64,000 bases of DNA from Balneola sp. (GTDB lineage Bacteria; Bacteroidota; Rhodothermia; Balneolales; Balneolaceae). The first letter of the stretch is position 1. Each line of letters begins with the position of its first letter. The stretch covers positions 517,210-581,209 of the forward strand of contig OZ245946.1 of the NCBI GenBank assembly GCA_965230095.1, written 5' to 3'. The notes beneath the pieces are model-generated. The model was given only the letters and a program-made list of their open reading frames with translations, searched no databases and was not told the origin of the DNA. The translations under genes were made by a program, and so were the position numbers. This document shows, in pieces, positions 38,850 through 63,445 of the stretch.

Positions 38850-38879
38850 CCTTCAGGCTCGGCAATATGGAAGTGAAAT
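38850..38879 (+). repeat. Direct repeat A, copy 1 (contains GCAGAGCC-TTCA-GGCTCGGC palindrome)
   Basis: CCTTCAGGCTCGGCAATATGGAAGTGAAAT; 26/30 identical to 39393..39422. Confidence 0.75.
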
Positions 38880-38951
38880 AGTTACTACAAGTGTAAGCAG
38901 AGTTTCCTTGGGCGTTCCGCACTGGAGCTACAGAACGAGAAGAAATGATCA

Positions 38952-39392
38952 ATGATGCAATTAAAAGAAATTAAAATCATTCTTGTTTTTACATTTTTAA
39001 CACTCTCTTGTAGTAATAGAATACAAGTTGGTAGTGAAACCCTAATACTTACTGATATAGTTAGGAGTGAAATAACATTTAATGAAAAAAATAAGGAGGA
39101 AGTATATAAGCTTTTAAATCATGAGAATCTTTTGGATGATAAAGATCGTTGGTTTTACATAGATAGAAAGCTTTATGCAGAACGTAGAGAGATATTACTG
39201 GATTCAAGTTGGATGAATTCAAACAGAGATGATATCACAATCATTTGGTTTAGTAGAAATGATTCAAACAGAAAATTATTTGAAGAGTACATAAAAGATA
39301 AAGATATACATTACTATAGAATAGGTTGGGAAATTGCTATTACATATGATGAGAGAAACGAAAAAATCTTATTAATCGAGTATGAGTTCTAA
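38952..39392 (+). CDS. Hypothetical lipoprotein (cargo between direct repeats)
   Basis: Lipobox LTLSC; very AT-rich; stop codon abuts repeat copy 2. Confidence 0.7.
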   Translation: MMQLKEIKIILVFTFLTLSCSNRIQVGSETLILTDIVRSEITFNEKNKEEVYKLLNHENLLDDKDRWFYIDRKLYAERREILLDSSWMNSNRDDITIIWFSRNDSNRKLFEEYIKDKDIHYYRIGWEIAITYDERNEKILLIEYEF

Positions 39393-39422
39393 CCTTCAGG
39401 CTCGGCGGTAAGGACGTGAAAT
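39393..39422 (+). repeat. Direct repeat A, copy 2
   Basis: CCTTCAGGCTCGGCGGTAAGGACGTGAAAT. Confidence 0.75.
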
Positions 39423-39535
39423 TTTATATAAGACTATGGAATACATTTCATTTTTAAAGAATATTCTTTCCTTCAAAACAAACCCTATATCAATCTTTGA
39501 AAGATTCCATAATTAAAGCTATATTTAGAATCTAG

Positions 39536-39566
39536 GTGAGCGTCGTGAAGGCACTCGCTTTTTTTT
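39536..39566 (+). terminator. Terminator-like hairpin in the rimP leader
   Basis: GTGAGCGTC-GTGAA-GGCACTCGC followed by T8, ending 19 nt before the rimP ATG. Confidence 0.6.
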
Positions 39567-39584
39567 GTCCTTATTTCCCGGATC

Positions 39585-40046
39585 ATGCAACTTGATACCA
39601 TACAAAAAATTAAAGATTTAGCGGCTCCTTTAGTAGAGTCTAAGGATCTCTTTGTCGTTGATATAGAACATAAAACCGGTAGTGGTTTGAATGAAGTATG
39701 GCTCTATTTAGACGCACAAGATCGCGGAGTTAATCTGGATGAATGTGCAGATATCAGCAAAGAATTAGGTTTTTTGATAGAAGCACACGAGTTATTTGAA
39801 AAGAAATATCGACTAAATGTTTCGTCACCGGGACTTAGCAGACCACTTTCTGATGTGCGTCAGTACAAAAAGAATCAGGGTCGTAAAGCTAAGGTCAAAT
39901 TCAAGAAAGAAGATGAATATGATAAAACTGAAGGAACCATAGTTGGTGTGGATGAAAACGGAATTATGCTAGAAGACCAAAACGGGAAATCTGTTAAGGT
40001 TTTATTCGACGATATAAAGGAAGCAAAGATCGTCCCAAATATTTAA
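39585..40046 (+). CDS. rimP: Ribosome maturation factor RimP
   Basis: VNLDECADISKEL, YRLNVSSPGLSRPL; first gene of the rimP-nusA-infB operon. Confidence 0.96.
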   Translation: MQLDTIQKIKDLAAPLVESKDLFVVDIEHKTGSGLNEVWLYLDAQDRGVNLDECADISKELGFLIEAHELFEKKYRLNVSSPGLSRPLSDVRQYKKNQGRKAKVKFKKEDEYDKTEGTIVGVDENGIMLEDQNGKSVKVLFDDIKEAKIVPNI

Positions 40047-40066
40047 TACATACTTAAGCAACGCTG

Positions 40067-41323
40067 ATGCAGAACGACTTATCAAAACAAATTATCTCCT
40101 CATTTGCAGAAATCGCAAAAGAAAAAGGAATTGATCGCGATCTATTGCTGTCAATATTAGAGGATGTGTTCCGCACAATGATTCGTAAAACGTACGAAAC
40201 TGATGACGCATTCTCAGTGATTTTGAATGCAGACAGAGGAGAGCTGCAGATATTACACATTCAGGAAGTGGTTCCTAAAGAAGAACTTACCGATGAAGTT
40301 GCTGAAATTACCTTGGAAGATGCTAAAAAGATCGATCCGGATATTGAGCTGTATGATGAGCTTGCTCAGGAAGTTCAGATCGTAGACTTTGGTCGTAGAG
40401 CAGTAATGATGGCTCGCCAACAACTGGCACAACGAATTCGTGAGATCGAAAAAGACAATATTTACGATGATTACACGGATCGAGTAGGTGAAATTATTTT
40501 AGGTGATGTGTATCAGGTTCGCCAGAACAAAGATATTTTAGTAAATCATAACGGTGTGGAATTAATGCTTCCAAAAAATGAGCAGATTTACAAAGACCGT
40601 TACAGAAAAGGTGATACCATCCGTGCAGTAGTGACCGGCGTTCACATGCGAAATGGTAACCCTACAGTTATTATCTCCAGAACTTCTGAGTTATTTTTGG
40701 AAAGACTATTTGAAAATGAAATTCCTGAAGTATTTGACGGAATCATAGATTTAGTGAAAATTGCACGCTCTCCTGGTGATCGTTCAAAAGTAGCGGTTAT
40801 TTCACATGATGAAAGAGTTGATCCTGTAGGAGCTTGTGTTGGAATGAAGGGAATTAGAATTCATGCCATTGTACGTGAGCTTCAGAATGAAAATATTGAT
40901 GTAATTAATTACACTGCTGATAAACATGAGTTTATCAAAAGAGCACTACAGCCTGCTGAAGTTCTTAAAGTAGAACTGGATGAAGAAGGTAAGAACGCAA
41001 GTGTATTGGTTCCTGCTGACGAAGTATCAAAAGCGATTGGTAAAGGTGGGGTTAACATCCGTCTGGCATCAAAATTGGCAGAATGCGAAATTGATGTATA
41101 TCGTGAGGTTGAGGAAGAAGATGATATTGATTTAGCAGAATTTGAGGAAGATTTTGGTAAAGAAGCGATTGAAGCTTTACATGAAATTGGCTGTGATACT
41201 GCACGTGCTGTACTTGAATTGAATGCAGATGAGTTAGTTAGCAGAACAAAAGAAGTTATAGATGAAGAACTCGCTAATAAGATCATGGATATGATCAGAT
41301 ATGAGTTCGAAGACGAAGGTTAA
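40067..41323 (+). CDS. nusA: Transcription factor NusA
   Basis: FGRRAVMMARQ, S1 and KH domains, ARSPGDRSKVAV, DPVGACVG, AIGKGGVN. Confidence 0.98.
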   Translation: MQNDLSKQIISSFAEIAKEKGIDRDLLLSILEDVFRTMIRKTYETDDAFSVILNADRGELQILHIQEVVPKEELTDEVAEITLEDAKKIDPDIELYDELAQEVQIVDFGRRAVMMARQQLAQRIREIEKDNIYDDYTDRVGEIILGDVYQVRQNKDILVNHNGVELMLPKNEQIYKDRYRKGDTIRAVVTGVHMRNGNPTVIISRTSELFLERLFENEIPEVFDGIIDLVKIARSPGDRSKVAVISHDERVDPVGACVGMKGIRIHAIVRELQNENIDVINYTADKHEFIKRALQPAEVLKVELDEEGKNASVLVPADEVSKAIGKGGVNIRLASKLAECEIDVYREVEEEDDIDLAEFEEDFGKEAIEALHEIGCDTARAVLELNADELVSRTKEVIDEELANKIMDMIRYEFEDEG

Positions 41324-41382
41324 TTTGCAGGGAATAACATCCGCTTTGTAATTTAACTTTCAATAGACACAAAAAATCATAT

Positions 41383-44178
41383 ATGTCCATAAATAGACCA
41401 AAACCATTATTTAAAGTTGCTTCAGAGTTTAATGTAACAACACAAACCATTGTTGATGCATTAAGTGAAGATTTTGAAGTTGCTAACCGACCAAATTTCA
41501 AAATAACGCCGGAAATGTATTCGGTTTTGGAAGGGATCTATGGCGAAGATAAAGCTAAGAGCCAGGATCATGAACGATCTCGTGAAGAGTACGAAAATCG
41601 TCGCAGTTCTATAATGGATCAAAGAAATGAAAGTGTAACTCTTGATTCGCTTGAACCAATTGATGAGTCACTGGGTTTAGAACCAGAAGACGAACCTCCA
41701 ACAGAGGAAAAAGAAGAAGAACTTCCTCTGGAGCCGGTTGAAGAAGAACCTGAAGGTCAGGAAACAGAAGAGGAAGAACAGGCTGAACTGGAAGAACCGG
41801 TTGCCGAGGAAGAAAGCGAAGAAACATCAGCTGAATCAGAAGATGCTAAAGAAGCTGAAGTAAAAGAGGAGCAAAGCGAACCTGAATCTGCATCTGAAAA
41901 AGAAGAAAAAACAGAAGAACAGAACGAATCTGATGATGAAGAATCTGTAGAAAACGAAAGTGAAGACGCTCATGAAGATCAGGATGAAGTTGAGGATGAG
42001 GATGATGAGGAAGACGATGAGCCTGAAGAGAAGGAAACCATCAAAGGTAAAGCAGATAAACTAAAAGGGACAAAAGTATTAGGCAAAACATCCTTCACTA
42101 ATGACTTAACAGGCGCTACCAAAAAACGGAAGAAAAGAAAGCGAAGAAAAGACAGAAATGATTCCAAGCAATCTACTTCTAAGAAAGATGACGACAAGAA
42201 ATCAGCAAAAAATAAAACGCGTAAAAAACCGAAAGGAAAATCCAATACCAAAACTGAGGTAGATGAGATCGATGTGGATCGCATGATGCGCGAGACCATG
42301 CAGAAGATCCAGGGTAATTCCAATGTGGGTAGTAAGCGTGGAAAAAGAAGACGCCAACGTAAAGAAGAAAGAGAGGAAGAACTGCAACAACAGCAGGAAA
42401 TGGAAGAAATGGAAGCTGGTGTAATTGAAGTCACCGAATTCATTACAGCCAATGATCTTGCTGAAGAACTGGAAGTTGGTGTAAACGATATTATTTCTGC
42501 ATGCATGAGTATTGGGTTGATGATAACCATCAATCAAAGATTGGATGCAGGTACCATTGAATTAGTTTCCGAAGAGTTTGGGAAAGAAGTTAAGTTCATT
42601 GACGCTGAGGAAATGGACGAAGAACTTGAAATCGAGGAAGACAATCCTGAAGATCTGGAAGATCGGGCTCCGATTATTACCGTAATGGGACACGTAGACC
42701 ACGGTAAAACCTCTTTGCTCGATTATATTCGTGAAGAAAGAGTAGCTGAAGGCGAGGCCGGTGGCATTACTCAGCATGTTGGTGCTTATTCGGTAATGCA
42801 TAGCGGAAAGCAAATTACATTCCTTGATACTCCGGGTCACGAAGCATTTACAGCAATGCGTTCCCGTGGTGCTCAGGCAACAGATATTGTAATTCTTGTA
42901 GTTGCTGCGGATGATTCCGTGATGCCTCAAACCATAGAGGCCATAAATCACGCAAAAGCAGCAGGTGTACCGATGGTGGTCGCTATTAATAAGATCGATA
43001 AACCTGGCTCTACACCTGATAAAATCAAACAGCAGTTATCAGAACATGAGGTAATTGTTGAAGACTGGGGTGGACAAACTCAATTTGCACTTGTTTCTGC
43101 AAAAACTGGTCAGGGAATTGATGAGTTATTAGAAAAAGTACTTATCGAAGCTGAACTACAGGAACTGAAAGCTAATCCTGATCGTAGAGCAAACGGTGTG
43201 GTACTTGAAGCCCGTTTAGATAAAGGAAAAGGTATTATCGCGAATGTTCTTGTACAAGGTGGTACACTAAAAGTTGGAGATCCATTTGTTGCAGGACCTT
43301 GTTTTGGTAGAGTTCGTGCAATGGAAAACGACCGTGGCGAAAGAATTAAAGAAGCAGGACCGGCAACTCCAGTTCAGTTAATGGGATTTGATGAAATGCC
43401 ACAGGCTGGAGATTCTTTAGTAGTTGCTGAGGATGAGAAAACAGCTAAAGATGTGGCTAGTCAGCGTAATCAAATTCGTCGTGAGCAGGCAATGAGAAAA
43501 ACCAAGCATATGACACTTGATGACCTTTCAAGAAGATTGGCACTCGGAGAAGTATCTGAGTTGAATATCATCATTAAAGCCGATGTGGATGGTTCTATTG
43601 AGGCTCTTTCAGGTTCATTGCAGAAAATCAGTAATGACGAAGTCGCTGTTAATATCATCCATACCGGTGCGGGAGCAATTTCTGAATCTGATGTATTATT
43701 AGCATCAGCTTCTGATGCTATTATTATCGGTTTCCAGGTACGACCTACTCAACAGGCTCGTAAACTTGCTGAAACCGAAGAAATTGATATCAGATTGTTC
43801 TCTGTTATTTACGATGCCGTTGATGAAGTTAAAGATGCTCTTGAAGGTCTACTATCTCCGGAATTGAAAGAAAAGATTCTAGGTAATGTTGAAGTTCGTG
43901 AGATCTTCAAAGTTTCTAAAGTTGGTACTATTGCCGGTTGTTATGTACTGGATGGTAAAATTGACCGAAATAATCCAGTTCGTATTATCCGTGAAGGCGT
44001 TGTTATTTATGATGGCGCTATTGGGGCCTTGAAACGTTTCAAAGATGATGTTAAAGAAGTAGCTGCCGGATACGAGTGTGGTATCAGCATTCAGAATTAC
44101 AACGATATTAAAGTTGGTGATAATTTTGAGAGCTACAAGATCACCGAAGAAAAACGTACGCTGGAAGACGCAAATTAA
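41383..44178 (+). CDS. infB: Translation initiation factor IF-2
   Basis: GHVDHGKT, GGITQH, DTPGHEAF, NKID; long acidic N-terminal region. Confidence 0.99.
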   Translation: MSINRPKPLFKVASEFNVTTQTIVDALSEDFEVANRPNFKITPEMYSVLEGIYGEDKAKSQDHERSREEYENRRSSIMDQRNESVTLDSLEPIDESLGLEPEDEPPTEEKEEELPLEPVEEEPEGQETEEEEQAELEEPVAEEESEETSAESEDAKEAEVKEEQSEPESASEKEEKTEEQNESDDEESVENESEDAHEDQDEVEDEDDEEDDEPEEKETIKGKADKLKGTKVLGKTSFTNDLTGATKKRKKRKRRKDRNDSKQSTSKKDDDKKSAKNKTRKKPKGKSNTKTEVDEIDVDRMMRETMQKIQGNSNVGSKRGKRRRQRKEEREEELQQQQEMEEMEAGVIEVTEFITANDLAEELEVGVNDIISACMSIGLMITINQRLDAGTIELVSEEFGKEVKFIDAEEMDEELEIEEDNPEDLEDRAPIITVMGHVDHGKTSLLDYIREERVAEGEAGGITQHVGAYSVMHSGKQITFLDTPGHEAFTAMRSRGAQATDIVILVVAADDSVMPQTIEAINHAKAAGVPMVVAINKIDKPGSTPDKIKQQLSEHEVIVEDWGGQTQFALVSAKTGQGIDELLEKVLIEAELQELKANPDRRANGVVLEARLDKGKGIIANVLVQGGTLKVGDPFVAGPCFGRVRAMENDRGERIKEAGPATPVQLMGFDEMPQAGDSLVVAEDEKTAKDVASQRNQIRREQAMRKTKHMTLDDLSRRLALGEVSELNIIIKADVDGSIEALSGSLQKISNDEVAVNIIHTGAGAISESDVLLASASDAIIIGFQVRPTQQARKLAETEEIDIRLFSVIYDAVDEVKDALEGLLSPELKEKILGNVEVREIFKVSKVGTIAGCYVLDGKIDRNNPVRIIREGVVIYDGAIGALKRFKDDVKEVAAGYECGISIQNYNDIKVGDNFESYKITEEKRTLEDAN

Positions 44179-44195
44179 GTAAAGAAGAGGTTTAA

Positions 44196-44573: not shown

Positions 44574-44574
44574 A

Positions 44575-46330: not shown

Positions 46331-46852
46331 ATGAAATTACTTACTACTTTACTATTTTTATGCTTTTCAACAATGGCTTATTCACAAGTAATTGATATGA
46401 GTGAGCTGATTGCCGATATGGAAAGAAACAAGGTAATGTCTCTTGCTTATGTTGATGCTATGCCTGCCGAAAAATTTAACTATCAGCCAAATGAAGATGT
46501 TCGAACCTATGCACAGCAGTTCTTACATATTTCACAAGGACTAATTGGTTTGTCAGCAAACGGAACAGGAGCAGAACCTATATTTAAAGGCGAAAACCTG
46601 GAAGCAACTGAGGCATATCAAACAAAAGCTGAAGTAAAAAGAATAGTCTCAGCAAGCTATGATTTTGCTATTAAAAGCATGAAAGAAATGGATATGTCAG
46701 AGCTCAATGAAGTGGTTCAACGGGGACAATTTAATGTAACCAGACTCGGCTGGATCAATAAAGCAATGGAACACAATACCCATCACAAAGGCCAATGTGC
46801 GGTGTATTTAAGAATGAATGGGATTACCCCACCTCAGTTTCAATTGTTCTAG
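46331..46852 (+). CDS. Exported DinB-family protein
   Basis: Signal peptide; AMPAEKFNYQP, QFLHI, HNTHHKGQCAVYLRMNGITPP. Confidence 0.85.
   Translation: MKLLTTLLFLCFSTMAYSQVIDMSELIADMERNKVMSLAYVDAMPAEKFNYQPNEDVRTYAQQFLHISQGLIGLSANGTGAEPIFKGENLEATEAYQTKAEVKRIVSASYDFAIKSMKEMDMSELNEVVQRGQFNVTRLGWINKAMEHNTHHKGQCAVYLRMNGITPPQFQLF
46656..46852 (+). repeat. Direct repeat B, copy 1 (3' 197 bp of the DinB-family gene)
   Basis: Matches 49418..49614; 151-bp perfect core 46695..46845 = 49457..49607. Confidence 0.95.
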
Positions 46853-46970
46853 GTTTTGTTATCGATAATTGTCGATCTTATTACTGTTAATTTTGATTTT
46901 AAAGCTAATTAAATTTGTAAAACCTGTTCTAATTATTTAATCTCCTGAGGAAAAATAAAGGGGTAATAAA

Positions 46971-49355
46971 ATGAGTGATTTTTGTAGATTAATATCTGTT
47001 CTGGATGATGCTGTTTTAACAAATACTTGTGGGGCTATACCCGGAGCAGATATCAGTAAAAGTGGTAATTATATATATGTATCTAGCAAGTATGAAAGTG
47101 GAGCAGATTACATACAGGTTTTTCCTATTGATATAGCTTCTCACTCTATAATTCATCAAACATCTGCACAACTAGAAGTTAATCACGAAGCGCATTCTGT
47201 TGCTGCTTCAAAAAATAATGATTCCTTGTTTTTTGTCTCGGGAACAGGCTCTGTGAAATGTTATCAATTTAATAAGGTTGGAAAAAAAGTAGATGAAGTT
47301 AATTCGCAACCAATAAAAGGCCCTATTTCAAAAGTAAAAACGTATTTGACTGTAGCTCATGAAGTTGTTTATGTACTCTGTTCTTGGTCAATGAACCCTA
47401 CTACGCTGGGAGGCAATCCAGCAACATTAAATACTTATTATATAGGAGTAGACGGAAAGCTTTCTCAAATTGGAAGTATTTCCGTTCCTATCGCAAATAG
47501 CACTAGTTTTGATGTTTCTGATGATGGGTATATCTATATAGGTGGTACTTCTGTTCATAATGGTCAGGCTGTACTTCTTGCCTACCAATTTAATACAAAT
47601 TCAGGGATTGTATCTGGGGACACCGTTGCTCAAACTTCGCCTGGTGCTTTGTTCGGTCATAATGTAAGTTCGATTGCAGTCAGTCCGGTCGATTATTCTA
47701 TTGTTCTTTCAACGAAAAATGTTAGTAATAATCAATTTATTTATCGTTTCAGGTTCAATAAAAGTTCTGAACAACTTGAACAAATTGGGGATAAATATGA
47801 TCCGAAATCGCCTGTTATAAATGGATTAGCTTTTTTGCCTTCGAATGAAAGTAATGATCAAAACGTATTGTACGGCACATACAGTAATGCTTTTTGTTGT
47901 TTTACGATACCTGTTAATCAGGGTATCACTGGAATTACTACATTTGAAGCTGTCAACCAACCAGATGAAATTATCATTCGGGAAGGAAAAGCGATAACAG
48001 TTTGTTATTCAGACCCAAATTTTCATGGCTGTTTTGGATTTTATGAATTGTTGAATTTTACAAATCCGGTATTATCTGTTACTGACACACCGTTTGGATT
48101 TAGTTTTTCTATAGACTTTGAGAAACTTGGTCATAGCTGGTCGGGAATAATTAAAATATTGAATTCCGACAATCAGCTTTTTGATTCTATAAGCATGTCA
48201 GAAGTTGGTACTTATTATGACTATAACCTGGTAAATCCAGGAGAAGCATTTACTGGTTCGGCAATAATAGAAGTAACTAATACTTCTACAGGTAATACTC
48301 TTACAAGCAAGCCAGTTTCTATAAGTTATTCGCCATTAGCTATTCAATTAAGTTTATCTGCTGGAATTGATGATTTAGAAGCCAATGCAACTATAAATGG
48401 TACACTTCCTACGGGTTCGGCAGTTGGCTTCTTTGTTCAATTTGAAGGTGACCAAAGAACGTTCAAAAATATAGTTGCGCCAACTATAAAAAATAACCAA
48501 ACTAGCTGGGCATTTAGTCAGAGTGGGCTAAACAGTCGTTTTGGGAATGACAGATCGGGAATGATTACGGTATATGCTTTAATCAGAAGTTCAGGAAAAT
48601 ACAATCAACCGGATTCTCCTGAAAACGCCAAGGGACAACTTGTTTCAGTATCCAAAGGGTATAGTTACAGTTCCCCAATCGCTCGTTTCGATATTTTTGA
48701 AAATGATAATGTCAATCCACCAACTTTCTTTTTTAACATTTATGTTAGCGATGCATTCAATTCATTTGCTTCAAAAAATGCAAAGAACGAAGTGGAATTT
48801 ACATTAGAATACTGGGGAGATAATCCTCAGCAGATTAGTACACTCGAATTACCTACTGTTCTGAATTCTAAGCCAAATACAAATGATTATGTAGGGGCTC
48901 CAACAATACCGGAAACCAAACTTCCGCTCACGGCAAGGTCCGGGAGGCTTAAATACACCAATAATGGAATTACTATTTACAGTACAAATGAAATTAATTA
49001 TTTAGCACCATTTACACTTAGTTATGCTTTTGTTCAGGCAAACAACCCAACCATTCAAATTATGGCAGATCCTAGGATTCATTTCAACAAATATAAAACC
49101 AATGATAACTTCCAGTTTCAGTTGTATTACTGGAACGATGGGGCTTCCAGAAACGAAAACAAAAAGCTGACGGTAGTTACTAATGGATCAGTCTTTAGGC
49201 GGGAATATGTAGTTAATAACAATGAACTTCCCTTATCTAGAGAGCCATTCAGGGCTGGTAATACTTACTGGATTCAAGCAGCATACATAAACAATACTGT
49301 ATCACCAGCTCAAACAATTTATGGAAAGGCACAGCAAATGATTGTACCTCTTTAA
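46971..49355 (+). CDS. 794-aa hypothetical protein, probable beta-propeller plus about four beta-sandwich domains
   Basis: Long intact ORF, Ser/Asn/Thr-rich beta composition, no N-terminal signal peptide; fold is inferred. Confidence 0.7.
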   Translation: MSDFCRLISVLDDAVLTNTCGAIPGADISKSGNYIYVSSKYESGADYIQVFPIDIASHSIIHQTSAQLEVNHEAHSVAASKNNDSLFFVSGTGSVKCYQFNKVGKKVDEVNSQPIKGPISKVKTYLTVAHEVVYVLCSWSMNPTTLGGNPATLNTYYIGVDGKLSQIGSISVPIANSTSFDVSDDGYIYIGGTSVHNGQAVLLAYQFNTNSGIVSGDTVAQTSPGALFGHNVSSIAVSPVDYSIVLSTKNVSNNQFIYRFRFNKSSEQLEQIGDKYDPKSPVINGLAFLPSNESNDQNVLYGTYSNAFCCFTIPVNQGITGITTFEAVNQPDEIIIREGKAITVCYSDPNFHGCFGFYELLNFTNPVLSVTDTPFGFSFSIDFEKLGHSWSGIIKILNSDNQLFDSISMSEVGTYYDYNLVNPGEAFTGSAIIEVTNTSTGNTLTSKPVSISYSPLAIQLSLSAGIDDLEANATINGTLPTGSAVGFFVQFEGDQRTFKNIVAPTIKNNQTSWAFSQSGLNSRFGNDRSGMITVYALIRSSGKYNQPDSPENAKGQLVSVSKGYSYSSPIARFDIFENDNVNPPTFFFNIYVSDAFNSFASKNAKNEVEFTLEYWGDNPQQISTLELPTVLNSKPNTNDYVGAPTIPETKLPLTARSGRLKYTNNGITIYSTNEINYLAPFTLSYAFVQANNPTIQIMADPRIHFNKYKTNDNFQFQLYYWNDGASRNENKKLTVVTNGSVFRREYVVNNNELPLSREPFRAGNTYWIQAAYINNTVSPAQTIYGKAQQMIVPL

Positions 49356-49417: not shown

Positions 49418-49614
49418 GCTATTACTTTGCACTTAAAAGCATGAAAGAAATGGATGTGTCAGAGCTCAATGAAGTGGTTCAACGGGGACAATTTAATGTA
49501 ACCAGACTCGGCTGGATCAATAAAGCAATGGAACACAATACCCATCACAAAGGCCAATGTGCGGTGTATTTAAGAATGAATGGGATTACCCCACCTCAGT
49601 TTCAATTATTTTAG
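49418..49614 (+). pseudogene. Duplicated 3' fragment of the DinB-family gene (direct repeat B, copy 2)
   Basis: Encodes the same C-terminal ~62 aa and stop; no matching 5' half. Confidence 0.92.
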
Positions 49615-49748
49615 CTTGTGGAAACAGATATTGTCATTCGAGATTTAATGATCCTGTACTTAAATAAAACTCAATAACCTTGATTGAAACCATTGTTTAG
49701 AGATATATTTTAATTACAAGAAACATTGTTGCTTATCATTAAAAAGCT

Positions 49749-52515: not shown

Positions 52516-52602
52516 GTCATCCTGAGGATACTTGCGAAGGATCTTCACATAGATTTACGAGTATATAAATTTTTGAAGATTCTTCGCTACGCTCTGAATG
52601 AC
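52516..52602. repeat. REPIN/MITE-like palindromic element, copy 1
   Basis: GTCATCCTGAG...GCGAAGGATCTTCA [spacer] TGAAGATTCTTCGC...CTCTGAATGAC. Confidence 0.75.
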
Positions 52603-54043: not shown

Positions 54044-55540
54044 ATGATCTACATCAACAAATTAAGTGAACACGTTGATAAGCAAGTAACTTTAAAAGGC
54101 TGGGTATATAATTACCGAAGCAGCGGAAGCCTTGTATTTATTGAAATGAGAGACGGAACCGGCCTAACTCAATGTGTGGTTGCCAAAGATGATGTTTCAG
54201 AATCAGATTGGGAAGCAGCTACGTCACTCCGACAGGAAAGCTCTCTCGAAATTACAGGAACTGTAAAAGCTGATGACAGAAGTATTGGCGGACATGAAAT
54301 ACATGTTTCTGAAGTAAACGTGGTACAGGTCGCGGAAGATTATCCGATCACACCAAAAGAACATGGTGTTGAGTTTTTAATGAACAATCGTCATTTGTGG
54401 TTACGTAGCCAGCGACAATGGGCGGCAATGCGTGTTCGAAATGAAATTATTTTTGCGATTCATACCTTCTTCCAAGAGCGAAATTTCGTGCAAATGGATT
54501 CCCCGATATTTACCAGTAACGCTGCTGAAGGGAGTACCACACTTTTTGAGACGGATTATTTTGAAGAAAAAGCTTATCTCGCTCAAACCGGTCAGTTGTA
54601 TGGAGAAGCAATGGCCATGGCTCACGGGTTGATCTATACATTCGGACCAACATTCCGTGCTGAGAAGTCTAAAACCCGACGACATCTTACCGAGTTCTGG
54701 ATGATAGAACCCGAAATGGCGTATTACGATCTTGATATGAATATGGATCTTGCAGAGGATATGATCCGGTTCATCACTGCTAAAGTGGTTGAAAAGAGAA
54801 AAAGTGAATTAGAAATTCTTGAAAGAGATATTTCTAAACTCGAGAAAGTAGCTGAAAATCCTTTCCAGAGAATTACCTATTCTGAAGCTGTTGAACAATT
54901 GAAGAGCAAAGAAACAGCTGATATGCTTGATCAGATGGTAGAAGATCGTAAGCAGGAAGAGAAAGACTTAAAAAAGGAGAGAGAAGAGATCAAAAAGGAA
55001 CACGGTTCTGCTAAAAAATGGAGAAAGAAGCAGATCGATCAGCGAGTGATCGAAATTGGTCAACGTTTAGATCAGATCGAAGAAGATTACAGAAACATTC
55101 CGCAGTGGAAAGAATCTGCTCAAAATTTTGAATGGGGCAATGATTTTGGCGGTAGCGACGAAACCGTGCTTATGCTTCAGCAAGAAGTTCCATTGATGGT
55201 TCACAGATGGCCGGCAGAGATCAAAGCATTCTATATGAAACGAGATCCTGAAGATGAACGACTGGTTCTTGGTGTGGATGTTCTTGCTCCGGAAGGTTAT
55301 GGCGAGATCATTGGTGGAAGTCAGCGTGAAGACGATCTGGAATTTTTAGAAAATCATATCGAAAAACACGACTTACCCATGGATGTATTCGGTTGGTATT
55401 TAGATCTGCGAAGATTCGGCTCTGTACCACACTCAGGCTTTGGTTTGGGACTTGAACGAACAGTTGCATGGTTATGTGGATTATCACACGTCAGAGAGAC
55501 GATTCCGTTTCCTAGGATGATGGGTCGCTTAAAACCGTAG
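54044..55540 (+). CDS. asnS: Asparagine--tRNA ligase with a charged internal insertion
   Basis: [68 protein letters not shown]. Confidence 0.97.
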
Positions 55541-55578
55541 GTTTTAAGAAATCTCAAAGTTCAAATAGCAAATTTCAA
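55523..55578 (+). repeat. Direct repeat C, copy 1 (last codons of asnS plus downstream heptamers)
   Basis: 51/56 identical to 56514..56569. Confidence 0.9.
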
Positions 55579-55639
55579 AAGAGTGATTCTCTTGTAGGTC
55601 TTATAAAACATTTAATATTCATTATGTAGAAAATATAAT

Positions 55640-56514
55640 ATGAGAAAGTTAATTCGGTGGTACATTCTTTTTTTTCTATTAATAAGTACTCAAAGTGTAT
55701 TAGGACAAAAGTATCAAGCAATTCTTGATTTAGAGGTTGGCAAAACATATAGCCTAAAAATTGAAGACAAACATTCTATAAATCTTGAGTATGAAGCTAA
55801 CTTAAATAAAAGTGATCTTATATTTAATTATGATTTACATTTTAAAGTTATCAATAATAAAGAAAACGAATACATAACTGAGGTACACTTTAGCAATTTT
55901 AGTTACAAAGAATCGAATACGCTATTTCAATCCTCTACTGATATTAAAAGTCCATTATTTGGTTTAGTTAATAAAAAGTTCACTGTGATTTTAAGCAAAT
56001 ACGGAGGTATCAATAATATAGAAGGACTACAACATATTGTTAATTCTCTAAATAGAACACAGTCTTTAAATGAAGATTGGTATGATGAATATTTGTCAGA
56101 TAGAATTCTTTTAGAAATACTTTTTTCTACATACCACCGTATCCAATAGCACCTGTAGCCAATGAAGTTCCTTGGTTACACCTTACCGGAATAGATGTTC
56201 AACTTGGATTTGTAAAATTAGAGTTAGAAGGAGTTCAAGAATATGATAATGACTCAGGTTATATCATTAGCAACAAAGGTAAGGCAATTGTACCAGATAG
56301 AATACTTTCTTTAGATACGAACAAGAGATTTTCCTATAATTCCATGACCATAGAGACAGATGGTTATTATCAACTTTCAAATTCTGGATGGCCTAAAAGT
56401 GGTAAAACAAACATTAAATCTATTTCCTCAATAGATTTGAAAATCACTGGAGAATCTGATAATACTGGGAGTTTTATATATTCAAGAAGTGTGGATTATT
56501 TGGAAAACTTTTAG
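55640..56514 (+). pseudogene. Frameshifted exported protein gene (DUF6263-like), about 291 aa if repaired
   Basis: ORF 55640..56149 with signal peptide; a second frame runs 129 stop-free codons from 56125 (FYIPPYPIAPVANEVPW...) to TAG 56514; the frames join at the T6 run 56121-56126. Confidence 0.7.
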
Positions 56515-56569
56515 GACGCTTAAAACAATAGGTTTTAAGAAATCTCAAATTTCAAACAGCAAATTTCAA
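56514..56569 (+). repeat. Direct repeat C, copy 2
   Basis: GGACGCTTAAAACAATAGGTTTTAAGAAATCTCAAATTTCAAACAGCAAATTTCAA; reads GRLKQ* versus asnS GRLKP*. Confidence 0.9.
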
Positions 56570-56643
56570 TTTTGGTCATCTCTGTAGATGTTAGATAATT
56601 CACTTACAAAAATTGACTTGTTTATAATTCTGACGATTTATAA

Positions 56644-56856
56644 AAAAGCTCCCAACTACACCGACCCTTAGAATTATTGGCGAGCCAAGAACGTAATGAA
56701 ATCGACGGCTCCGAAGGAGCAATCATTACACTCCGGCTGATTCGTGAATGTGTTCAATAAGAACGAAGACCTTTTGTAATGATTAGTCGATGTAATGGAG
56801 TTCGCGCCCATAATTCTTGTCGGGAGCTTTTGGTACTTTTGTCGGTACAAAAGTAC
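56644..56856 (+). other. Structured non-coding element, copy L (RNA or ssDNA)
   Basis: Nested stems, GCTCC-GAA-GGAGC hairpin, GAACGAAGACCTTT, terminal GTACTTTTGT-CGGT-ACAAAAGTAC hairpin. Confidence 0.8.
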
Positions 56857-56908
56857 ACAGAGCCAAGGAACTGAATTATATAAGAGGATTAACTTAGCAC
56901 AAGGGTAT

Positions 56909-57112
56909 CTACTTTTGTCTTGATACAAAAGTAGCAAAAGATCAAGCCGAAGTATTTAAGACGGGTTCACTGATCCTGCGCTGAATAATCCTAAAGGTCT
57001 TCGTTCGATCTGATACATTTCTACACTCTTCACCTGAAAGGATTATTCCTGCTTCGCAGACGCATCCGGATCACGCTCTCTTATCCGTCTTAAATACTAA
57101 GGGCAAATTTTT
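56909..57112 (-). other. Structured non-coding element, copy R (RNA or ssDNA)
   Basis: Same order of stems and motifs on the minus strand: 14-bp perfect stem, CTGC-GAA-GCAG, GAACGAAGACCTTT, CTACTTTTGT-ATCAAG-ACAAAAGTAG. Confidence 0.8.
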
Positions 57113-57159
57113 CAAGAACTATCTCTACAAAACTGTCATCGAATTAATTGACATCTACA

Positions 57160-57182
57160 ATCCCGAACTTGTTTCGGGATCT
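57160..57182. repeat. REP-like hairpin fragment
   Basis: ATCCCGAA-CTTGT-TTCGGGAT-CT. Confidence 0.5.
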
Positions 57183-57282
57183 TTGTGGGGAACCTTAGTT
57201 AAATACTTGATAAATATAATCAAAAAAGCCTATCCTTCTTTACTGCGCGTTCCATTCTTCTGATAAATGGTTTTAATAGAGT

Positions 57283-57765: not shown

Positions 57766-57836
57766 GTCATCCTGAGGATACCTCCGAAGGATCTGCAAAA
57801 TTTAAATATACTAAAAAGTAAATTTGAAGATTCTTC
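57766..57836. repeat. REPIN/MITE-like palindromic element, copy 2 (right end eroded)
   Basis: GTCATCCTGAGGATAC identical to 52516-52531; GAAGGATCT ... TTTGAAGATTCTTC. Confidence 0.75.
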
Positions 57837-57885
57837 ACTTTCGGCAACAGTTTTTGAGAAACTTAACTTCTAATAAAAAACTATT

Positions 57886-58281: not shown

Positions 58282-58314
58282 GCTTTTTCAAGCTAAATAT
58301 TTCACATTCTATAT

Positions 58315-58677
58315 TTAAGAATCGGAATTTTCAAGAGCTTTATAATCACTAATCAACCAGGTTAGGAATACAGCAACTCCAAAACCAAGATAGAAATTTC
58401 GAGCCAGATCGCCTTCACGTCCGCCTACGTAGAAAGCAAATCCTATTAAAGCTATAGAAACTATAAGCTCAATCATTCCATGAATTTTGAGTGGAATAAT
58501 TTTTACCAGCCCAACCTCAAAATCAGTAAAAATGGTAAGAGTGAAATGGATTCCTGCTAGAATATACGTACAGCACGCAGTGAATTCAGGAAGCCCAAAA
58601 AGAGAGGGGGAAGCAACTAAAAAAAGTACTACTACATAATCGATGATTCCGTGTAGTTTTGAAGTCAGGATTTTCAT
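58315..58677 (-). CDS. SPW-repeat-like membrane protein
   Basis: HGIIDY...ASPSLFG, TIFTDFEVGLVKIIPLKIHGMIE. Confidence 0.6.
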   Translation of the reverse strand: MKILTSKLHGIIDYVVVLFLVASPSLFGLPEFTACCTYILAGIHFTLTIFTDFEVGLVKIIPLKIHGMIELIVSIALIGFAFYVGGREGDLARNFYLGFGVAVFLTWLISDYKALENSDS

Positions 58678-58740
58678 TATTGTACCGTTAATTAAAATTT
58701 GTACAATATAAATGAAATAAAGTCATTCTCAATAATTCAT

Positions 58741-58773
58741 AAAAAAAGCCCCATTCAAATTAATGAATGAGGC
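58741..58773 (-). terminator. Intrinsic terminator of the carbonic anhydrase gene
   Basis: Minus strand AGCCTCATTCA-TTAATT-TGAATGGGGCT followed by T run. Confidence 0.75.
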
Positions 58774-58795
58774 TAATAAGAATCCTAAGAAGGAT

Positions 58796-59530
58796 TTAGT
58801 TTTCAACAAAAGTTACTTTCCCGGTATCAAGATCATAGTAAGCTCCCACAACCATGATTTCGTTTTTGTCTACCATGCCTTTTAATACAGGGCTTTTCAC
58901 CTTCATTTCATTGATGGTATATTCAACATTTTTGTTAACTACTTCATCAACAAACTGAGCATTTTTTGATGTTCTGTCACTTGCATATCCTTCTATAGCG
59001 TCAATAGCCGGTTGCACACGACCTAACAGAACGTCTGCATTATCGCTTAAATCTGCTTTATCGATAGCTGCTTTTACAGCTCCGCAAGCCTCATGGCCCA
59101 ACACAACAACCAGTTTAGAGCCTGCAACAGCAGCACCATACTCGATGCTTCCTAAAATATCTGGATTGACTGTATTTCCTGCTACTCTGGCAACAAAAAT
59201 GTCTCCGACTCCTTTATCGAATACTTTTTCTACCGGTACACGGCTATCAATACATGAAAGTACAACTGCTTTTGGATATTGTGCAGATGTAGTTGCAACC
59301 ACCTGAGCCTGGTAATTGCGGGGAGTAAGATTATTTTCTGTAAAACGTTCATTTCCCTCTTTAAATGAAGCAAGAATTGCCTCAGGTGTTAAATTTTCCT
59401 GATCTTCAGCAGTGATTACATCACTCACCAAAGGTTCAGAGGTTTGAGGATTATCGCTTTTTTGAGTACAGCTTATAAATAAAGCCAGTAACGGAACAAA
59501 TAATAATGATGATGAATATTTTTTAAACAT
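58796..59530 (-). CDS. Beta-class carbonic anhydrase, lipoprotein
   Basis: Lipobox FISC; CIDSRV, RVAGN, GHEACGAV zinc ligands. Confidence 0.92.
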   Translation of the reverse strand: MFKKYSSSLLFVPLLALFISCTQKSDNPQTSEPLVSDVITAEDQENLTPEAILASFKEGNERFTENNLTPRNYQAQVVATTSAQYPKAVVLSCIDSRVPVEKVFDKGVGDIFVARVAGNTVNPDILGSIEYGAAVAGSKLVVVLGHEACGAVKAAIDKADLSDNADVLLGRVQPAIDAIEGYASDRTSKNAQFVDEVVNKNVEYTINEMKVKSPVLKGMVDKNEIMVVGAYYDLDTGKVTFVEN

Positions 59531-59650
59531 GATTTTAATATTAGTTTTTTTGGTTCCGAGAATTTAGGCTCTCATGTAAATGAGAATTAGCTCTCAATTC
59601 ACATGCAAAACCTAACTAGCGAGTATTATCATTCCCGATTTATCGTATAA

Positions 59651-59682
59651 AAACAAAAATTCATGGAGAAACCATGAATTTT
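59651..59682 (-). terminator. Probable terminator of the TIGR03643-family gene
   Basis: AAAATTCATGG / CCATGAATTTT 11-bp stem (59656-59682), T-rich tail on the minus strand. Confidence 0.6.
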
Positions 59683-59768
59683 ATTAAACTTGAAAGGATG
59701 TAAGTTCCTAATCGCAGGGACTTAAGAGGTGAGTAAATTCAATGTTAAAAAATTGTTAACAGGCTTTT

Positions 59769-60059
59769 TTAGTACTTCTTTTTCGCAATTTTATTACCGG
59801 TTATAGGGTTTTGTGCCGGCGAAACAAATCGTTTCACTTCGTCGCTTCTTAGTTTTCTGTGCTTAGTTTGTCTTCCAGAAACTCTTTTTCTCCAGAGCTC
59901 CCAGCTTTTACGTTTTAGTTGACTTCGCATCAACTTTATTACTTCATCTTCTGATAAACCAAACTGGTATTCTATAGCATCAAACGGAGTTCGGTCTTCC
60001 CAAGCCATTCCAATGATTCTGTCAATTTCATGTTGTTCCAGCTCTTCTATTTTTTTCAT
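59769..60059 (-). CDS. TIGR03643/DUF2805 family protein
   Basis: IDRIIGMAWEDRTPFDAIEYQFGLSEDEVIKLMR...WRKRVSGRQTKH. Confidence 0.88.
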   Translation of the reverse strand: MKKIEELEQHEIDRIIGMAWEDRTPFDAIEYQFGLSEDEVIKLMRSQLKRKSWELWRKRVSGRQTKHRKLRSDEVKRFVSPAQNPITGNKIAKKKY

Positions 60060-60091
60060 ACTGAAATAACACGATTATAAGAAGGAATCAT

Positions 60092-61483
60092 TCAGTTTTT
60101 TACGGATTTCAACAGTCTTTTTAATTCATGACTTGAATACCAGTTTCCTTTTGAAACTAATCCTGCAACAGATGTTGTATTACTAATATCAGCCAAAGGG
60201 TTTTCTGATAATATCAGTAAATCAGCAATTTTTCCTTCTTCAATACTTCCGTATTCATTTTCCAGGTCAAAGAACTTTGGACCGTTTATTACAGATGTGA
60301 TCAATGCTTCTTGTGGAGTGAGTCCGGCATTAACTAAAAGCTCTAATTCTTTATGTATGGATTGACCTGGATAAGTAAATGAGTTGAACGGACCTGAATC
60401 AGAGCCCGCCAGAATATTAATTCCGGAATCGTACATAGGTTTAACCATATTGCTGAAACTAGTGACCCAAAGTGATCTGGTTTGAGTATAATTTTCTCCG
60501 CCACGTTTGGCAGAATTTAACCGCCTTTGATAAGTTTTAGTAATCTCCGGAGAAATGTAATTGAGTAAAGAATCTTCAGAGTGATCTGTTATTAATAACT
60601 CAGCTAATGTTTTTCCGACATGAAGGGTGGGGGTAACATAAAATTCATTTTCCGCTAATTTTATGTACGCTTTCTTTGCCAGTTCTTCGTCATAGGTATT
60701 CATAAGTGGAGTTATCATACTGTAACCTGCCCCGGCCTCGGTTAAACTATCAGCCAATGGAGACCCTTCTTTCAGTGCATAATACAAATGCTCGGTACCA
60801 TCTAAACCCAATTCAACTGCTTTCATCAAATCTGCGGAAAGGGGCATATGTCCGGCAGTGCTTATATTTCGTTTTTCAGCTTCAGTAATAATATTATAAA
60901 AAGCTTCTTTACTGAGATTCCCATCATAGATCTTTACAAAATCAGCATTAATGGTCTCAATAGAATCGAGTGCTTCTATTGTTTCTTCTTTATTTGTTAC
61001 TGATATAGAACCTTCCCAGGCAGGACGTGAGCCATCCAGTTTTGGTCCCGGGGTAAAAATCTTTGGACCGTCAAGTTCACCTTTTTGGACTTGATCATTC
61101 CATTTGTGAATAGCAGGAGTTATGTCACCACCTCCATCACGGACGCTTGTAATTCCAAATGCAAGGAGTAATGGTAGGAGTTTTTGATTGGCTTGAATAA
61201 GTTCTTCTCCGCCACGAAAATGTATATGATTATCCCAGAGCCCCGGCATTACATACTTTCCATTTAAACTGATGATCTGTTCAGAATGATAATTCCCAAG
61301 ATCAGAAGCATAATCGGTTGCCAGAATTTTATCTCCGGAAATAGCTATTAATTGGTTTGTAATGATCTTTCCATTCTCTACATCAACAATTGAAACATCT
61401 GTAAGTATAAGGTCTGCTTGTTTTGTTTCGGAGCACGAATTTAAAATCAGTAGAGAGAATAACAGAGGAATGAGTTTTGACAC
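60092..61483 (-). CDS. Amidohydrolase-family lipoprotein
   Basis: MPGLWDNHIH, FVKIY, GH, GTEH, LAGSDSG, GSIEEGKIADL. Confidence 0.92.
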   Translation of the reverse strand: MSKLIPLLFSLLILNSCSETKQADLILTDVSIVDVENGKIITNQLIAISGDKILATDYASDLGNYHSEQIISLNGKYVMPGLWDNHIHFRGGEELIQANQKLLPLLLAFGITSVRDGGGDITPAIHKWNDQVQKGELDGPKIFTPGPKLDGSRPAWEGSISVTNKEETIEALDSIETINADFVKIYDGNLSKEAFYNIITEAEKRNISTAGHMPLSADLMKAVELGLDGTEHLYYALKEGSPLADSLTEAGAGYSMITPLMNTYDEELAKKAYIKLAENEFYVTPTLHVGKTLAELLITDHSEDSLLNYISPEITKTYQRRLNSAKRGGENYTQTRSLWVTSFSNMVKPMYDSGINILAGSDSGPFNSFTYPGQSIHKELELLVNAGLTPQEALITSVINGPKFFDLENEYGSIEEGKIADLLILSENPLADISNTTSVAGLVSKGNWYSSHELKRLLKSVKN

Positions 61484-61535
61484 TTTCAGAATTTTTTGAT
61501 TACAAAGGTTGTACTTAATGAATTGAAATGTACAA

Positions 61536-61562
61536 TAAATTTCGTGCTTTAGTGAATTAGTG
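61536..61562 (+). repeat. Direct repeat D, copy 1
   Basis: TAAATTTCGTGCTTTAGTGAATTAGTG, 27/27 identical to 63419..63445. Confidence 0.92.
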
Positions 61563-61659
61563 GCTTCTAAATATTACAGCCTAAAATCTAAAAGATTAAT
61601 TTAGTTTAGTATGACATAGACTGTCACCCTTAGATGATACACTAAAGAAAAAGTAGCAA

Positions 61660-62706
61660 ATGGAAAAAGGATCTGAGTTTTTAAAACTAATCGAAATAGT
61701 ACAACCTATTAATAGTATTGGTATAAAATTACACACGTTTATAAGAAATGAAATACCAAACGTAGAAGAAACAGAAAACATTGATAAAAAAAGGTGGTAT
61801 TCATTCAAAAAGGAAATTGAAGAGTACTTTAAATGGCGGCAAGAACATCAGATTAAATGGAGACTTATAAACTATGATGGTCAAGCTAAAGAATTTTATT
61901 GTATCCATATTGAAGAGGGAATCACTTTGTATTTTGAATCTTCTGAGGGAATCAAATTAATCTATGATTCTAAAAGCGATCAAAAATTAGTTGAACAGCT
62001 TAAGAATAAGATAAACAAACTAAAAAAGAAGCATTCGAGATTTACGATTGGTTTCGTTCAATCAGAAATGAGCACACTTCGTATAAGATTTCGAGAGTTT
62101 AAACCTTATGAAAATGATTTAACCAAGTTTTTAGGAAATGACTTCTTAGAATTTGAAGAACAATTAGTAAGCGATATCAATCAAAATAATCGAAGCGGAC
62201 TTTACTTGCTACATGGTAAACCGGGAACCGGAAAAACATCATTTATAAAAAGTGTTTTGAGTAAAGTCGAAAAACATGCAATATTCATAACACCTGCTTT
62301 GACTGAAAGTTTAACATCTCCCGAGTTGGTTGGGTTACTATTGGATCACCCTGAGTCCATTATTATTATTGAAGATGCTGAAACGGTGTTAATGAAACGA
62401 CAAGCCGATAATTCAAATGCGGTTTCAAATTTGCTCAATCTTACGGATGGCTTTCCTGCTGATTTTTTAAACTTAAATATAATCTGCACTTTTAATACCA
62501 ATATCGACAATATTGATCCTGCTTTACTTCGAAAAGGGCGGCTTTCAGGGATAAAAGAATTTCAAAAACTTAAACCGGATCAAGCTAATTCTTTAGCAAA
62601 AGAAATGGGATATACACTAAATACAAACTCACCAATGACATTAGCAGAAGTTTGTAATGTAACTGGTAAGAAATACCAAGTTACAACTAATGGAATTGGG
62701 TTTTAA
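61660..62706 (+). CDS. AAA+ ATPase (classical AAA clade) with uncharacterised N-terminal domain
   Basis: Walker A GKPGTGKT, Walker B IIIIED, sensor-1 TFN, DPALLRKGR arginine finger. Confidence 0.88.
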   Translation: MEKGSEFLKLIEIVQPINSIGIKLHTFIRNEIPNVEETENIDKKRWYSFKKEIEEYFKWRQEHQIKWRLINYDGQAKEFYCIHIEEGITLYFESSEGIKLIYDSKSDQKLVEQLKNKINKLKKKHSRFTIGFVQSEMSTLRIRFREFKPYENDLTKFLGNDFLEFEEQLVSDINQNNRSGLYLLHGKPGTGKTSFIKSVLSKVEKHAIFITPALTESLTSPELVGLLLDHPESIIIIEDAETVLMKRQADNSNAVSNLLNLTDGFPADFLNLNIICTFNTNIDNIDPALLRKGRLSGIKEFQKLKPDQANSLAKEMGYTLNTNSPMTLAEVCNVTGKKYQVTTNGIGF

Positions 62707-62716
62707 AAGGGAAATT

Positions 62717-63367
62717 ATGATTATTAAAAAAAATACTATTCGATCAAAAGAAGATGCACTGTTTGATGAATGGTCAGAGAAATATCCATCTTTCGTAAGG
62801 GATGGAGTTATATCAGAAAATGCCTATGAGAATTCGAAGCTTAAAATCTTGCTTATTCTAAAAGAAGTAAATGATAAAGGAGGCGGAGGGTGGGATTTGC
62901 GAAATTATGTTTCTGAGAAGCCTAGGGGTATGACTTGGAATATGGTTTCTTACTGGGTTAAAGGAATTTTAGATTTAGAAAAGTCATTCGATTGGAAATG
63001 CCTAAAGGAGACTAAGAAATCTGATAGAGCTGAATATTTACAATCTATTGCCGTCATGAATTTAAAAAAAACACCTGGTGGAGGTTCTTCTGATGAAAAA
63101 GAAATTAGAGAGTTTACTCAGGACGATCGTGAATATTTATCTAAACAATTCAATTTATATAATTCTGACATAGTGATTTGCTGTGGTACGGGGAAATTTG
63201 TTAAAGAAATTATAGAAGTGGACTGGAAAAAAACAACAAGAGGTATTAAATATGGAGAATTTGAGAATAATAAATACATATATAGTTTCTATCACCCACA
63301 GGCTAGATATCCAAATCATTTCAAATATTATATGCTAATTGATGCAATTAAAGAACTACAGCAATAG
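62717..63367 (+). CDS. Hypothetical protein, possibly uracil-DNA glycosylase-like fold
   Basis: ILLILKEVN, AVMNLKK, DIVICCGT, C-terminal YHPQ resemble UDG-superfamily motif spacing; fold is inferred; ATG 62717 preferred over track start 62690. Confidence 0.5.
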   Translation: MIIKKNTIRSKEDALFDEWSEKYPSFVRDGVISENAYENSKLKILLILKEVNDKGGGGWDLRNYVSEKPRGMTWNMVSYWVKGILDLEKSFDWKCLKETKKSDRAEYLQSIAVMNLKKTPGGGSSDEKEIREFTQDDREYLSKQFNLYNSDIVICCGTGKFVKEIIEVDWKKTTRGIKYGEFENNKYIYSFYHPQARYPNHFKYYMLIDAIKELQQ

Positions 63368-63418
63368 AACTACTATTCTTTCAACAGGTTTTTATAGCTC
63401 AAATAAATTTTAGCATGC

Positions 63419-63445
63419 TAAATTTCGTGCTTTAGTGAATTAGTG
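63419..63445 (+). repeat. Direct repeat D, copy 2
   Basis: Exact copy of 61536..61562. Confidence 0.92.

Follow-up and report, generated by a model that had tools for sequence, protein, structure and literature searches.

How do small genes enter a bacterial chromosome when no mobile machinery accompanies them? This process is still poorly understood, and the question is raised repeatedly by a 64,000-nt stretch of DNA from Balneola sp. (assembly GCA_965230095.1, contig OZ245946.1, positions 517,210 to 581,209 of the forward strand), which is called the window hereafter and whose positions are counted from its first base. The window forms part of a single-contig genome of 3.45 Mb with an overall guanine-plus-cytosine (GC) content of 37.9%. 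Its backbone is made of Balneola core genes (rimP-nusA-infB-rbfA-truB-ribF, rpsO-pnp, an asnS-like ligase gene, also called asnS below, and holA), and a dinB-family gene, an M16 peptidase gene and an amidohydrolase gene also lie around the repeats considered here. A first-pass annotation, made from the letters alone, had described four AT-rich cargo cassettes, A to D, each bounded by its own direct repeat and free of mobility genes, and had proposed a repeated route of gene capture. Comparison with related genomes indicates that B, C and D are real insertion or deletion differences bounded by repeats, which are present in a single copy at empty sites, while locus A is a slot upstream of rimP with changing cargo, and copies of a hairpin element that is dispersed in the genome mark its borders. 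The proposed capture is therefore retained for B, C and D, where there are empty sites, recent movement and no mobility gene nearby, but not for A. The four repeat pairs, all of which were found where the annotation had placed them, are as follows.

Repeat A, 38850-38879 and 39393-39422, + strand, 26 of 30 positions identical
Repeat B, 46656-46873 and 49418-49635, + strand, 205 of 218 positions identical, with a perfect core of ~151 nt
Repeat C, 55523-55578 and 56514-56569, + strand, 51 of 56 positions identical
Repeat D, 61536-61562 and 63419-63445, + strand, 27 of 27 positions identical, or 28 of 29 when extended

The four repeats are mutually unrelated, as had been stated, and they have no motif in common. 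Repeats B, C and D, with lengths of 218, 56 and 29 nt, have two copies each in the 3.45-Mb genome and none elsewhere; by simple arithmetic, ~1e-6 recurrences of an exact 27-mer at a distance of no more than 5 kb are expected by chance in a genome of this size. All cargo genes in the four cassettes do lie on the + strand, and the cargo sizes range from 0.5 to 2.5 kb. The description as AT-rich is appropriate for cargo A (29.8% GC), C (28.6%) and D (31.4%), which are below the 5th GC percentile of the genome, but less so for cargo B, whose 35.0% is just mildly low. The reported lack of an integrase, transposase or reverse transcriptase agrees with our searches, since none of the profiles Phage_integrase, Y1_Tnp, rve, DDE_Tnp_1, Resolvase and RVT_1 had a match in the window; in the rest of the genome they matched 7, 9, 0, 0, 1 and 0 times, respectively. 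ARAGORN detected no tmRNA or tRNA target. PADLOC returned no match for cargo A, B and C and only weak ones for the genes of D (mad8, E=1e-5; Csx1/Csm6-like, E=4e-3), and no defence-system assignment was made.

Then, do relatives without the cargo carry one copy of the repeat or two? The genomes compared were a conspecific complete genome (ERZ25071297, loci L029 and L034), which is 97-98% identical to the window, a sequencing run with the close strain to which that genome corresponds (X13, depth ~420, compared as assembled contigs), and the five closest species, together with 22 other Balneola species for the protein searches. At B, C and D, this check, which the annotation had suggested, revealed a single copy in relatives that lack the cargo. 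For B, both L029 and X13 have a single dinB-family gene, followed by rpsO 183 nt later, and lack the cargo gene orf794; the left copy in the window agrees with this empty-site target at 189 of 218 positions and the right copy at 200 of 218. For C, three other species (G012, G017 and G009) have one repeat copy directly after asnS and no cargo, with agreement of 50-52/56 for the left copy and 53/56 for the right. For D, the amidohydrolase-holA gap of the conspecific L034 is 127 nt long and contains a single 29-nt copy without the two cargo genes, and the run X13 joins position 61563 to 63447, skipping exactly 1883 nt, that is, the repeat spacing; the two copies agree with the target at 29/29 and 28/29 positions. 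An assembly artefact was rejected as an explanation, because the genome is one contig and the structures of A, B and C are reproduced independently in L029, in L028 (a Logan contig from another metagenome sample) and in G013, respectively. Two observations that the annotation itself had named as refuting, namely dispersed repeats and the presence of both repeats regardless of cargo, apply to A but not to B, C or D.

The features of cassette B are listed below.

46331-46852, + strand, dinB-family gene, whose last 197 nt, together with ~20 nt past the stop, are covered by left repeat B
46971-49355, + strand, orf794, an orphan open reading frame (ORF) of 794 aa, within the cargo segment 46874-49417
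49418-49635, + strand, right repeat B, a displaced 3' fragment of the dinB-family gene (residues ~105-173) that runs into the native upstream region of rpsO

The annotation was correct that in B and C the 3' end of the gene upstream, including the stop codon, occurs twice; this gene is the dinB-family gene in B and the asnS-like gene, whose product ends in GRLKP, in C. The right copy of B is not preceded by any remnant of the upstream gene, and it is a fragment with no function of its own. Its edges and downstream flank equal the empty-site sequence, while the last bases and the downstream flank of the left copy are specific to the cassette. Similarly, the right copy of C has the diagnostic bases of the single copies at empty sites, and the left copies of C in the window and in G013 have cassette-linked variants in common. 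In both B and C, the native copy is thus the right one, where the displaced fragment lies. G006 and G014 gave no information when the B copies were polarised against them.

The contig L028 has the same filled arrangement as the window, with 17 differences in 2565 nt of cargo (99.3% identity), and rpsO-pnp is ~91% identical in further contigs of its metagenome run. In the metagenome runs X11, X12 and X14, contigs within orf794 differ by 0-1.2% and the rpsO-pnp contigs by 8-10%. The tract of high identity around cargo B ends in or at the repeats. In L028, the right fragment keeps the native allele and the perfect core of B is missing, while in the window the core of this copy (49457-49563) now carries, through conversion, the allele of the left copy. 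Therefore, the perfect core should be regarded as a patch of gene conversion and not as the mark of a very recent duplication, and gene conversion between the two B copies is supported. The orphan status of orf794 was borne out, since a search of 5.8e9 proteins returned only itself, and neither the 22 other Balneola species nor a scan of genome contigs contained a match. A large protein search with cargo C likewise returned only the truncated copy of the window, and consequently the origin of these two cargoes cannot be traced to other genomic contexts.

It should be noted that the dinB-family gene of the window is a mosaic. Over the tract 46522-46747 its divergence from the conspecific is ~20%, against ~0.5% in ribF directly upstream; the diverged tract starts 134 nt to the left of repeat B, and in L028 it is absent at least from 46736, where that contig begins. 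This tract is a separate allelic import at the spacer between ribF and rpsO, which is a replacement hot spot. In the five closest species the spacer is occupied by an unrelated 147-aa gene on the minus strand, in G014 by a dinB-family gene alone, and in G006 and in metagenome contigs of the Joint Genome Institute (JGI) by a dinB-family gene with other genes. As a separate observation, the dinB-family gene of G006 (L022/L026) is bracketed by a complete minus-strand gene, possibly DUF1697-like as judged by eye, and by a diverged N-terminal fragment of that gene, which is a further duplicated-target arrangement at the same hot spot.

Cassette C follows an asnS-like gene encoding a class II tRNA ligase and has the following parts.

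55523-55578, + strand, left repeat C, made up of the final 5 codons and the stop codon of the asnS-like gene together with a hairpin resembling a terminator and ~35 nt
55640-56514, + strand, cargo C, a secreted protein with a weak DUF6263 match
56514-56569, + strand, right repeat C, of the native type, 53/56 identical to G012 and G017

The frameshift that had been noticed in cargo C is a 1-nt deletion near 56114 relative to an intact 291-aa ORF in G013, which is filled at this site and has both repeat copies. Between the window and G013, there are only 5 differences in the ~695 nt of 55538-56232 (99.3% identity), one of them being the frameshift, and 31 differences in 235 nt of the adjacent asnS (87% identity). 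Such near-identical cargo next to a diverged asnS shows that cargo C has moved recently between species. The high-identity tract begins inside the left repeat and stops inside the right one. As the annotation had remarked, the cargo stop codon abuts the downstream repeat in A, where TAA is directly followed by CCTTC, and in C, where one base of TAG is shared with the repeat. In the conspecific L029, the C site holds another gene, of 353 aa, and no repeat. In addition, a low-depth X13 contig of 1022 nt had been considered as a circle of cargo C, its length being about the repeat spacing plus k-1, and it was dropped, since repeat-bounded unitigs explain it equally well.

Beside cassette C, at 56581-57159, there is an element of ~579 nt resembling a miniature inverted-repeat transposable element (MITE), which has ~20-nt terminal inverted repeats and, further in, two inverted arms of ~200 nt. 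The genome contains at least 5 full and at least 10 partial copies of it, and rve and DDE_Tnp_1 were not detected in the genome. The element is precisely absent from this site in G017, and in G009 and G002 it is located between pnp and the M16 peptidase gene.

Cassette D is located in the divergent intergenic region between the amidohydrolase gene and holA.

61536-61564, + strand, left repeat D, 29 nt, 96 nt upstream of the AAA gene
61660-62706, + strand, AAA ATPase gene, the first gene of cargo D (61660-63367)
62690-63367, + strand, UDG-like gene, 225 aa, overlapping the AAA ATPase gene
63419-63447, + strand, right repeat D, 28/29 identical to the left copy, ~45 nt upstream of the holA ATG

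The annotation had described the cargo as an AAA ATPase paired with a protein like uracil-DNA glycosylase (UDG); the AAA domain was confirmed, while the UDG-like label is just a lead from protein-atlas neighbours. The AAA gene was not found in the 22 other Balneola species. Since the repeat lies ~45-75 nt upstream of the holA ATG, a piece of the region upstream of holA was duplicated by the insertion, and its left copy could conceivably serve as a promoter for the AAA gene. Independently of the cassette, the segment 63456-63520, covering the holA upstream region and 5' end, is 93% identical in species whose coding regions are 85-88% identical; it has a long-range complementary pair, CTATTTC...GAAATAG, and no Rfam match.

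What, then, distinguishes locus A? Its features are the following.

38836-38945, + strand, copy of a dispersed hairpin-rich element of ~110 nt, containing left repeat A, with the head ...CCAGCAGAG-CCTTCAGGCTCGGC
38952-39392, + strand, cargo A, a predicted lipoprotein of 146 aa
39393-39422, + strand, right repeat A, a native but truncated hairpin-head copy, which relatives conserve upstream of rimP

The lipoprotein label fits inspection of the sequence, whose signal ends in LTLSC. Nevertheless, the idea that cargo A is bounded by an insertion repeat had to be abandoned, because in relatives two to three copies accompany different cargo or hardly any. Within repeat A, the first 14-28 nt belong to a dispersed family of ~12 genomic copies, whose hairpin (GAGCC-TTCA-GGCTC) shows partly compensatory variation, and the other modules of the ~110-nt element are dispersed in the genome as well. 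The slot upstream of rimP contains three element copies in series and two other lipoprotein genes in G012, two copies and a small membrane protein in G009, a Y1 transposase-like gene in G013, other cargo again in G017, and in G002 two copies ~190 nt apart with no gene between them, the second having a degenerate hairpin. Repeat A is therefore part of a dispersed structured element and not a target duplication made by insertion. No Rfam family was found at locus A, either at the gathering threshold over the whole window or in E-value mode over 38440-39600.

The homologue of cargo A in the conspecific L029 is present but interrupted. The interruption (L029:2373-2905) is a 533-nt, 5'-truncated Y1_Tnp fragment with hairpins, inserted in the order X-insert-Y-X-Y with a 47-nt target duplicated, and a 266-aa chimeric ORF results. 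In the window genome, a homologous Y1-fragment element (C1:3035107-3036227, 85% identical) is inserted relative to G002, and the same end of it adjoins a 39-nt copy of a host gene segment ~280 nt away; this copy is off the insertion boundary.

Are such islets confined to the window? The genome-wide repeat scan that the annotation had called for found many local direct repeats, most of them paralogues or tandem arrays, and about a dozen further unique pairs of 30-240 nt around 0.4-3 kb of mostly low-GC DNA. For example, the cargo of the islet at genome position 2395054 (54-nt repeat) is present only in G002 among the five closest species, where a copy of the left repeat, 87% identical, is found too, and in the other four species the right-flank homology starts at the right repeat or 27 nt before it. 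For the islet at 2524637 (117-nt repeat), the cargo is absent from all five closest species and the homology starts no more than 10 nt from the right repeat. The islet at 3128429 was set aside as uninformative, because its region is unmatched in the five. Aside from the islets, families of hairpin modules resembling repetitive extragenic palindromic (REP) sequences fill intergenic regions of the window (38564-38642, 38724-38766, 52516-52547, 57160-57199 and 57766-57797), and similar hairpins follow Y1 gene fragments; the nine Y1_Tnp genes of the genome are like those of IS200 or of REP-associated tyrosine transposases (RAYT).

How could these islets have been formed? We consider it probable, though by no means certain, that a conserved core backbone has received low-GC, strain- or species-specific islets, with B, C and D being insertions with long target duplication made by a homology-driven route and A a variable slot. 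Judging from sequence comparison, the favoured course would consist of homology-driven insertion, spread by recombination and loss through the repeats. Because the repeats are unrelated to each other, local homology is favoured over one site-specific enzyme, and probably no dedicated element enzyme would take part. The incoming donor DNA would already carry the gene next to a copy of the conserved neighbouring sequence, on which homologous recombination could anchor it; the other side would be joined illegitimately, and the native copy would thereby be displaced downstream. Alternatively, a circularised fragment may have entered by a single crossover, so that the anchor was duplicated. The islet would then pass from one Balneola lineage to another by recombination in or close to the repeats, gene conversion takes place between the two copies, as is supported for B, and recombination between them could remove the islet precisely. 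Insertion with long target duplication was reportedly described by Nobusato and colleagues in 2000 (Gene 259:99), and homology-facilitated illegitimate recombination is said to have been described by de Vries and Wackernagel and by Prudhomme and colleagues, both in 2002.

Several points weigh against this account. The direction of the events is inferred, and an empty site could represent a deletion between the repeats instead of the state before insertion. At 29 and 56 nt, two of the repeats would by themselves be short substrates for RecA-dependent recombination. With the mosaic of dinB alleles, a one-ended illegitimate join, a single crossover of a circle and a site-specific crossover are inseparable at B, and because all relatives conserve the informative part of repeat C, that repeat fits the variants of the mechanism and an enzyme acting in trans alike. 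In addition, the 7 tyrosine recombinases and 9 HUH (Y1) proteins encoded elsewhere might act in trans, and the structure of cassette D in the window genome is seen in that one assembly alone.

Could the islets then be decayed or non-autonomous integrative elements, similar to cis-mobilizable elements (CIMEs) or to integrative mobile elements exploiting Xer recombination (IMEX), with the repeats being attL and attR and the recombinase supplied in trans? Duplication of a gene 3' end including the stop is the classical signature of an integrase, seven tyrosine recombinases and one serine recombinase are available elsewhere in the genome, and the hybrid copies, the left partly linked to the cassette and the right of native type at the distal end, as well as the transfer tracts that stop within the repeats, would also fit attL and attR. 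However, unrelated repeats of 29-218 nt would need several different enzymes. Some dozen other islets also have unique repeats, each one its own. Each repeat occurs at its own site alone, so that no autonomous element with the same att is present in the genome, and no remnant of an integrase gene was seen in the cargo of 0.5-2.5 kb. CIMEs, which derive from ICEs/IMEs, and the XerCD-dependent IMEX and pdif modules resemble the present islets in having recombinase-free cargo between repeated sites, for which movement in trans is possible in principle, but they share att or dif with an autonomous element or the chromosomal dif, whereas the repeats here are unique copies of the local target, with no further copy in the genome and no integrase in the window. 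On balance, we regard this explanation as unlikely.

We are more doubtful that the repeats are pre-existing local duplicates or dispersed elements between which cargo was swapped by a double crossover in the flanks, as in replacement islets or "minimal mobile elements". For A this does hold, since its repeat head is dispersed and its relatives keep two to three copies beside different cargo or ~190 nt of non-coding sequence, and the gene content of the spacers between ribF and rpsO, downstream of asnS and upstream of holA varies from species to species, which amounts to replacement. In B, C and D, however, cargo-free genomes have one copy and not two, and the second copy is a gene fragment without a function of its own.

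With somewhat less confidence still, it may be supposed that a route encoded by the Balneola host itself makes long target duplications and captures single genes beside conserved genes, possibly through its expanded HUH (Y1/RAYT-like) enzymes or through a change of template at the replication fork. If so, the dozen or more islets would be products of one reaction, whose most recent traces would be the X-insert-Y-X-Y insertion in L029 and the 39-nt host copy. The version in which HUH enzymes (Y1, IS200/RAYT-like) or fork template switching create the duplications in a specific insertion reaction is the least likely of all, since IS200/IS605 transposition is not known to duplicate its target, such duplications are present in B, C and D, which show neither shared end hairpins nor, by eye, element-like hairpins at the cargo ends (only repeat A has a hairpin), and the 39-nt copy of the second example is off the insertion boundary, even though there are nine Y1_Tnp genes against zero for rve and DDE_Tnp_1, the 47-nt target in the conspecific was duplicated recently, and the homologue in the window genome has a host copy beside the same element end.

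In the insertions with long target duplication surveyed earlier, the duplications are long, variable and unique, often span start or stop sites and are not accompanied by a mobility gene; the inserts are shorter than 20 kb and often lower in GC than the genome average, and the repeat occurs once at the empty site of a related genome (Furuta et al., 2010, NAR 38:2428, PMC2853133). B, C and D likewise have variable unique flanking repeats, low GC, inserts that are absent from flank-aligned relatives, a single copy at the empty site, no multi-copy repeat and no integrase or transposase. A differs in its copy number and in that G002 has ~190 nt instead of a gene and a second, degenerate copy. With duplications of 218 and 56 nt against the required >30 bp, B and C qualify as insertions with long target duplication, and D, with 29 nt just below this limit, almost does. 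The cases surveyed were restriction-modification genes, and the authors linked this mode to breakage by those enzymes (Furuta et al., 2010), whereas the cargo here is of another kind (an orphan of 794 aa, a secreted protein with a weak DUF6263 match, and the AAA and UDG-like pair), and at least three cases occur within 17 kb of one genome. The insertion mode itself is already known but poorly understood; what differs here is the type of cargo, the density of events, and filled and empty alleles within one species.

The displaced 3' ends of B and C also resemble the orphan 3' fragments at Rhs, contact-dependent inhibition (CDI) and type VI secretion system (T6SS) loci, where the incoming DNA likewise attaches to a conserved gene, bringing along an intact 3' end and new genes, and the former 3' end is shifted downstream as a fragment, and for such fragments homology-facilitated illegitimate recombination was proposed (Kirchberger et al., 2017, PMC5361080). 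Unlike those loci, the islets here follow no toxin/immunity logic, have one displaced fragment per site, and have a junction presumed to be illegitimate. Locus A, in turn, recalls integron arrays, since in its relatives two to three short structured repeats line up, each with one small gene behind it, but no integron integrase is located beside the array, and the repeat is upstream of the gene, leader-like (~110 nt) and dispersed. The window has no tyrosine recombinase, its repeats are mutually unrelated, and no attC features were seen, attC models not having been run.

What does this mean for Balneola? The same footprint is found around ordinary-looking cargo several times in one genome, with near-identical cargo in other lineages, and its occurrence on ordinary cargo argues that the route belongs to the recombination system of the host and not to the cargo. 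As the strain set is present in several public algal and aquatic sequencing runs, gain, loss and gene conversion would be measurable at such sites.

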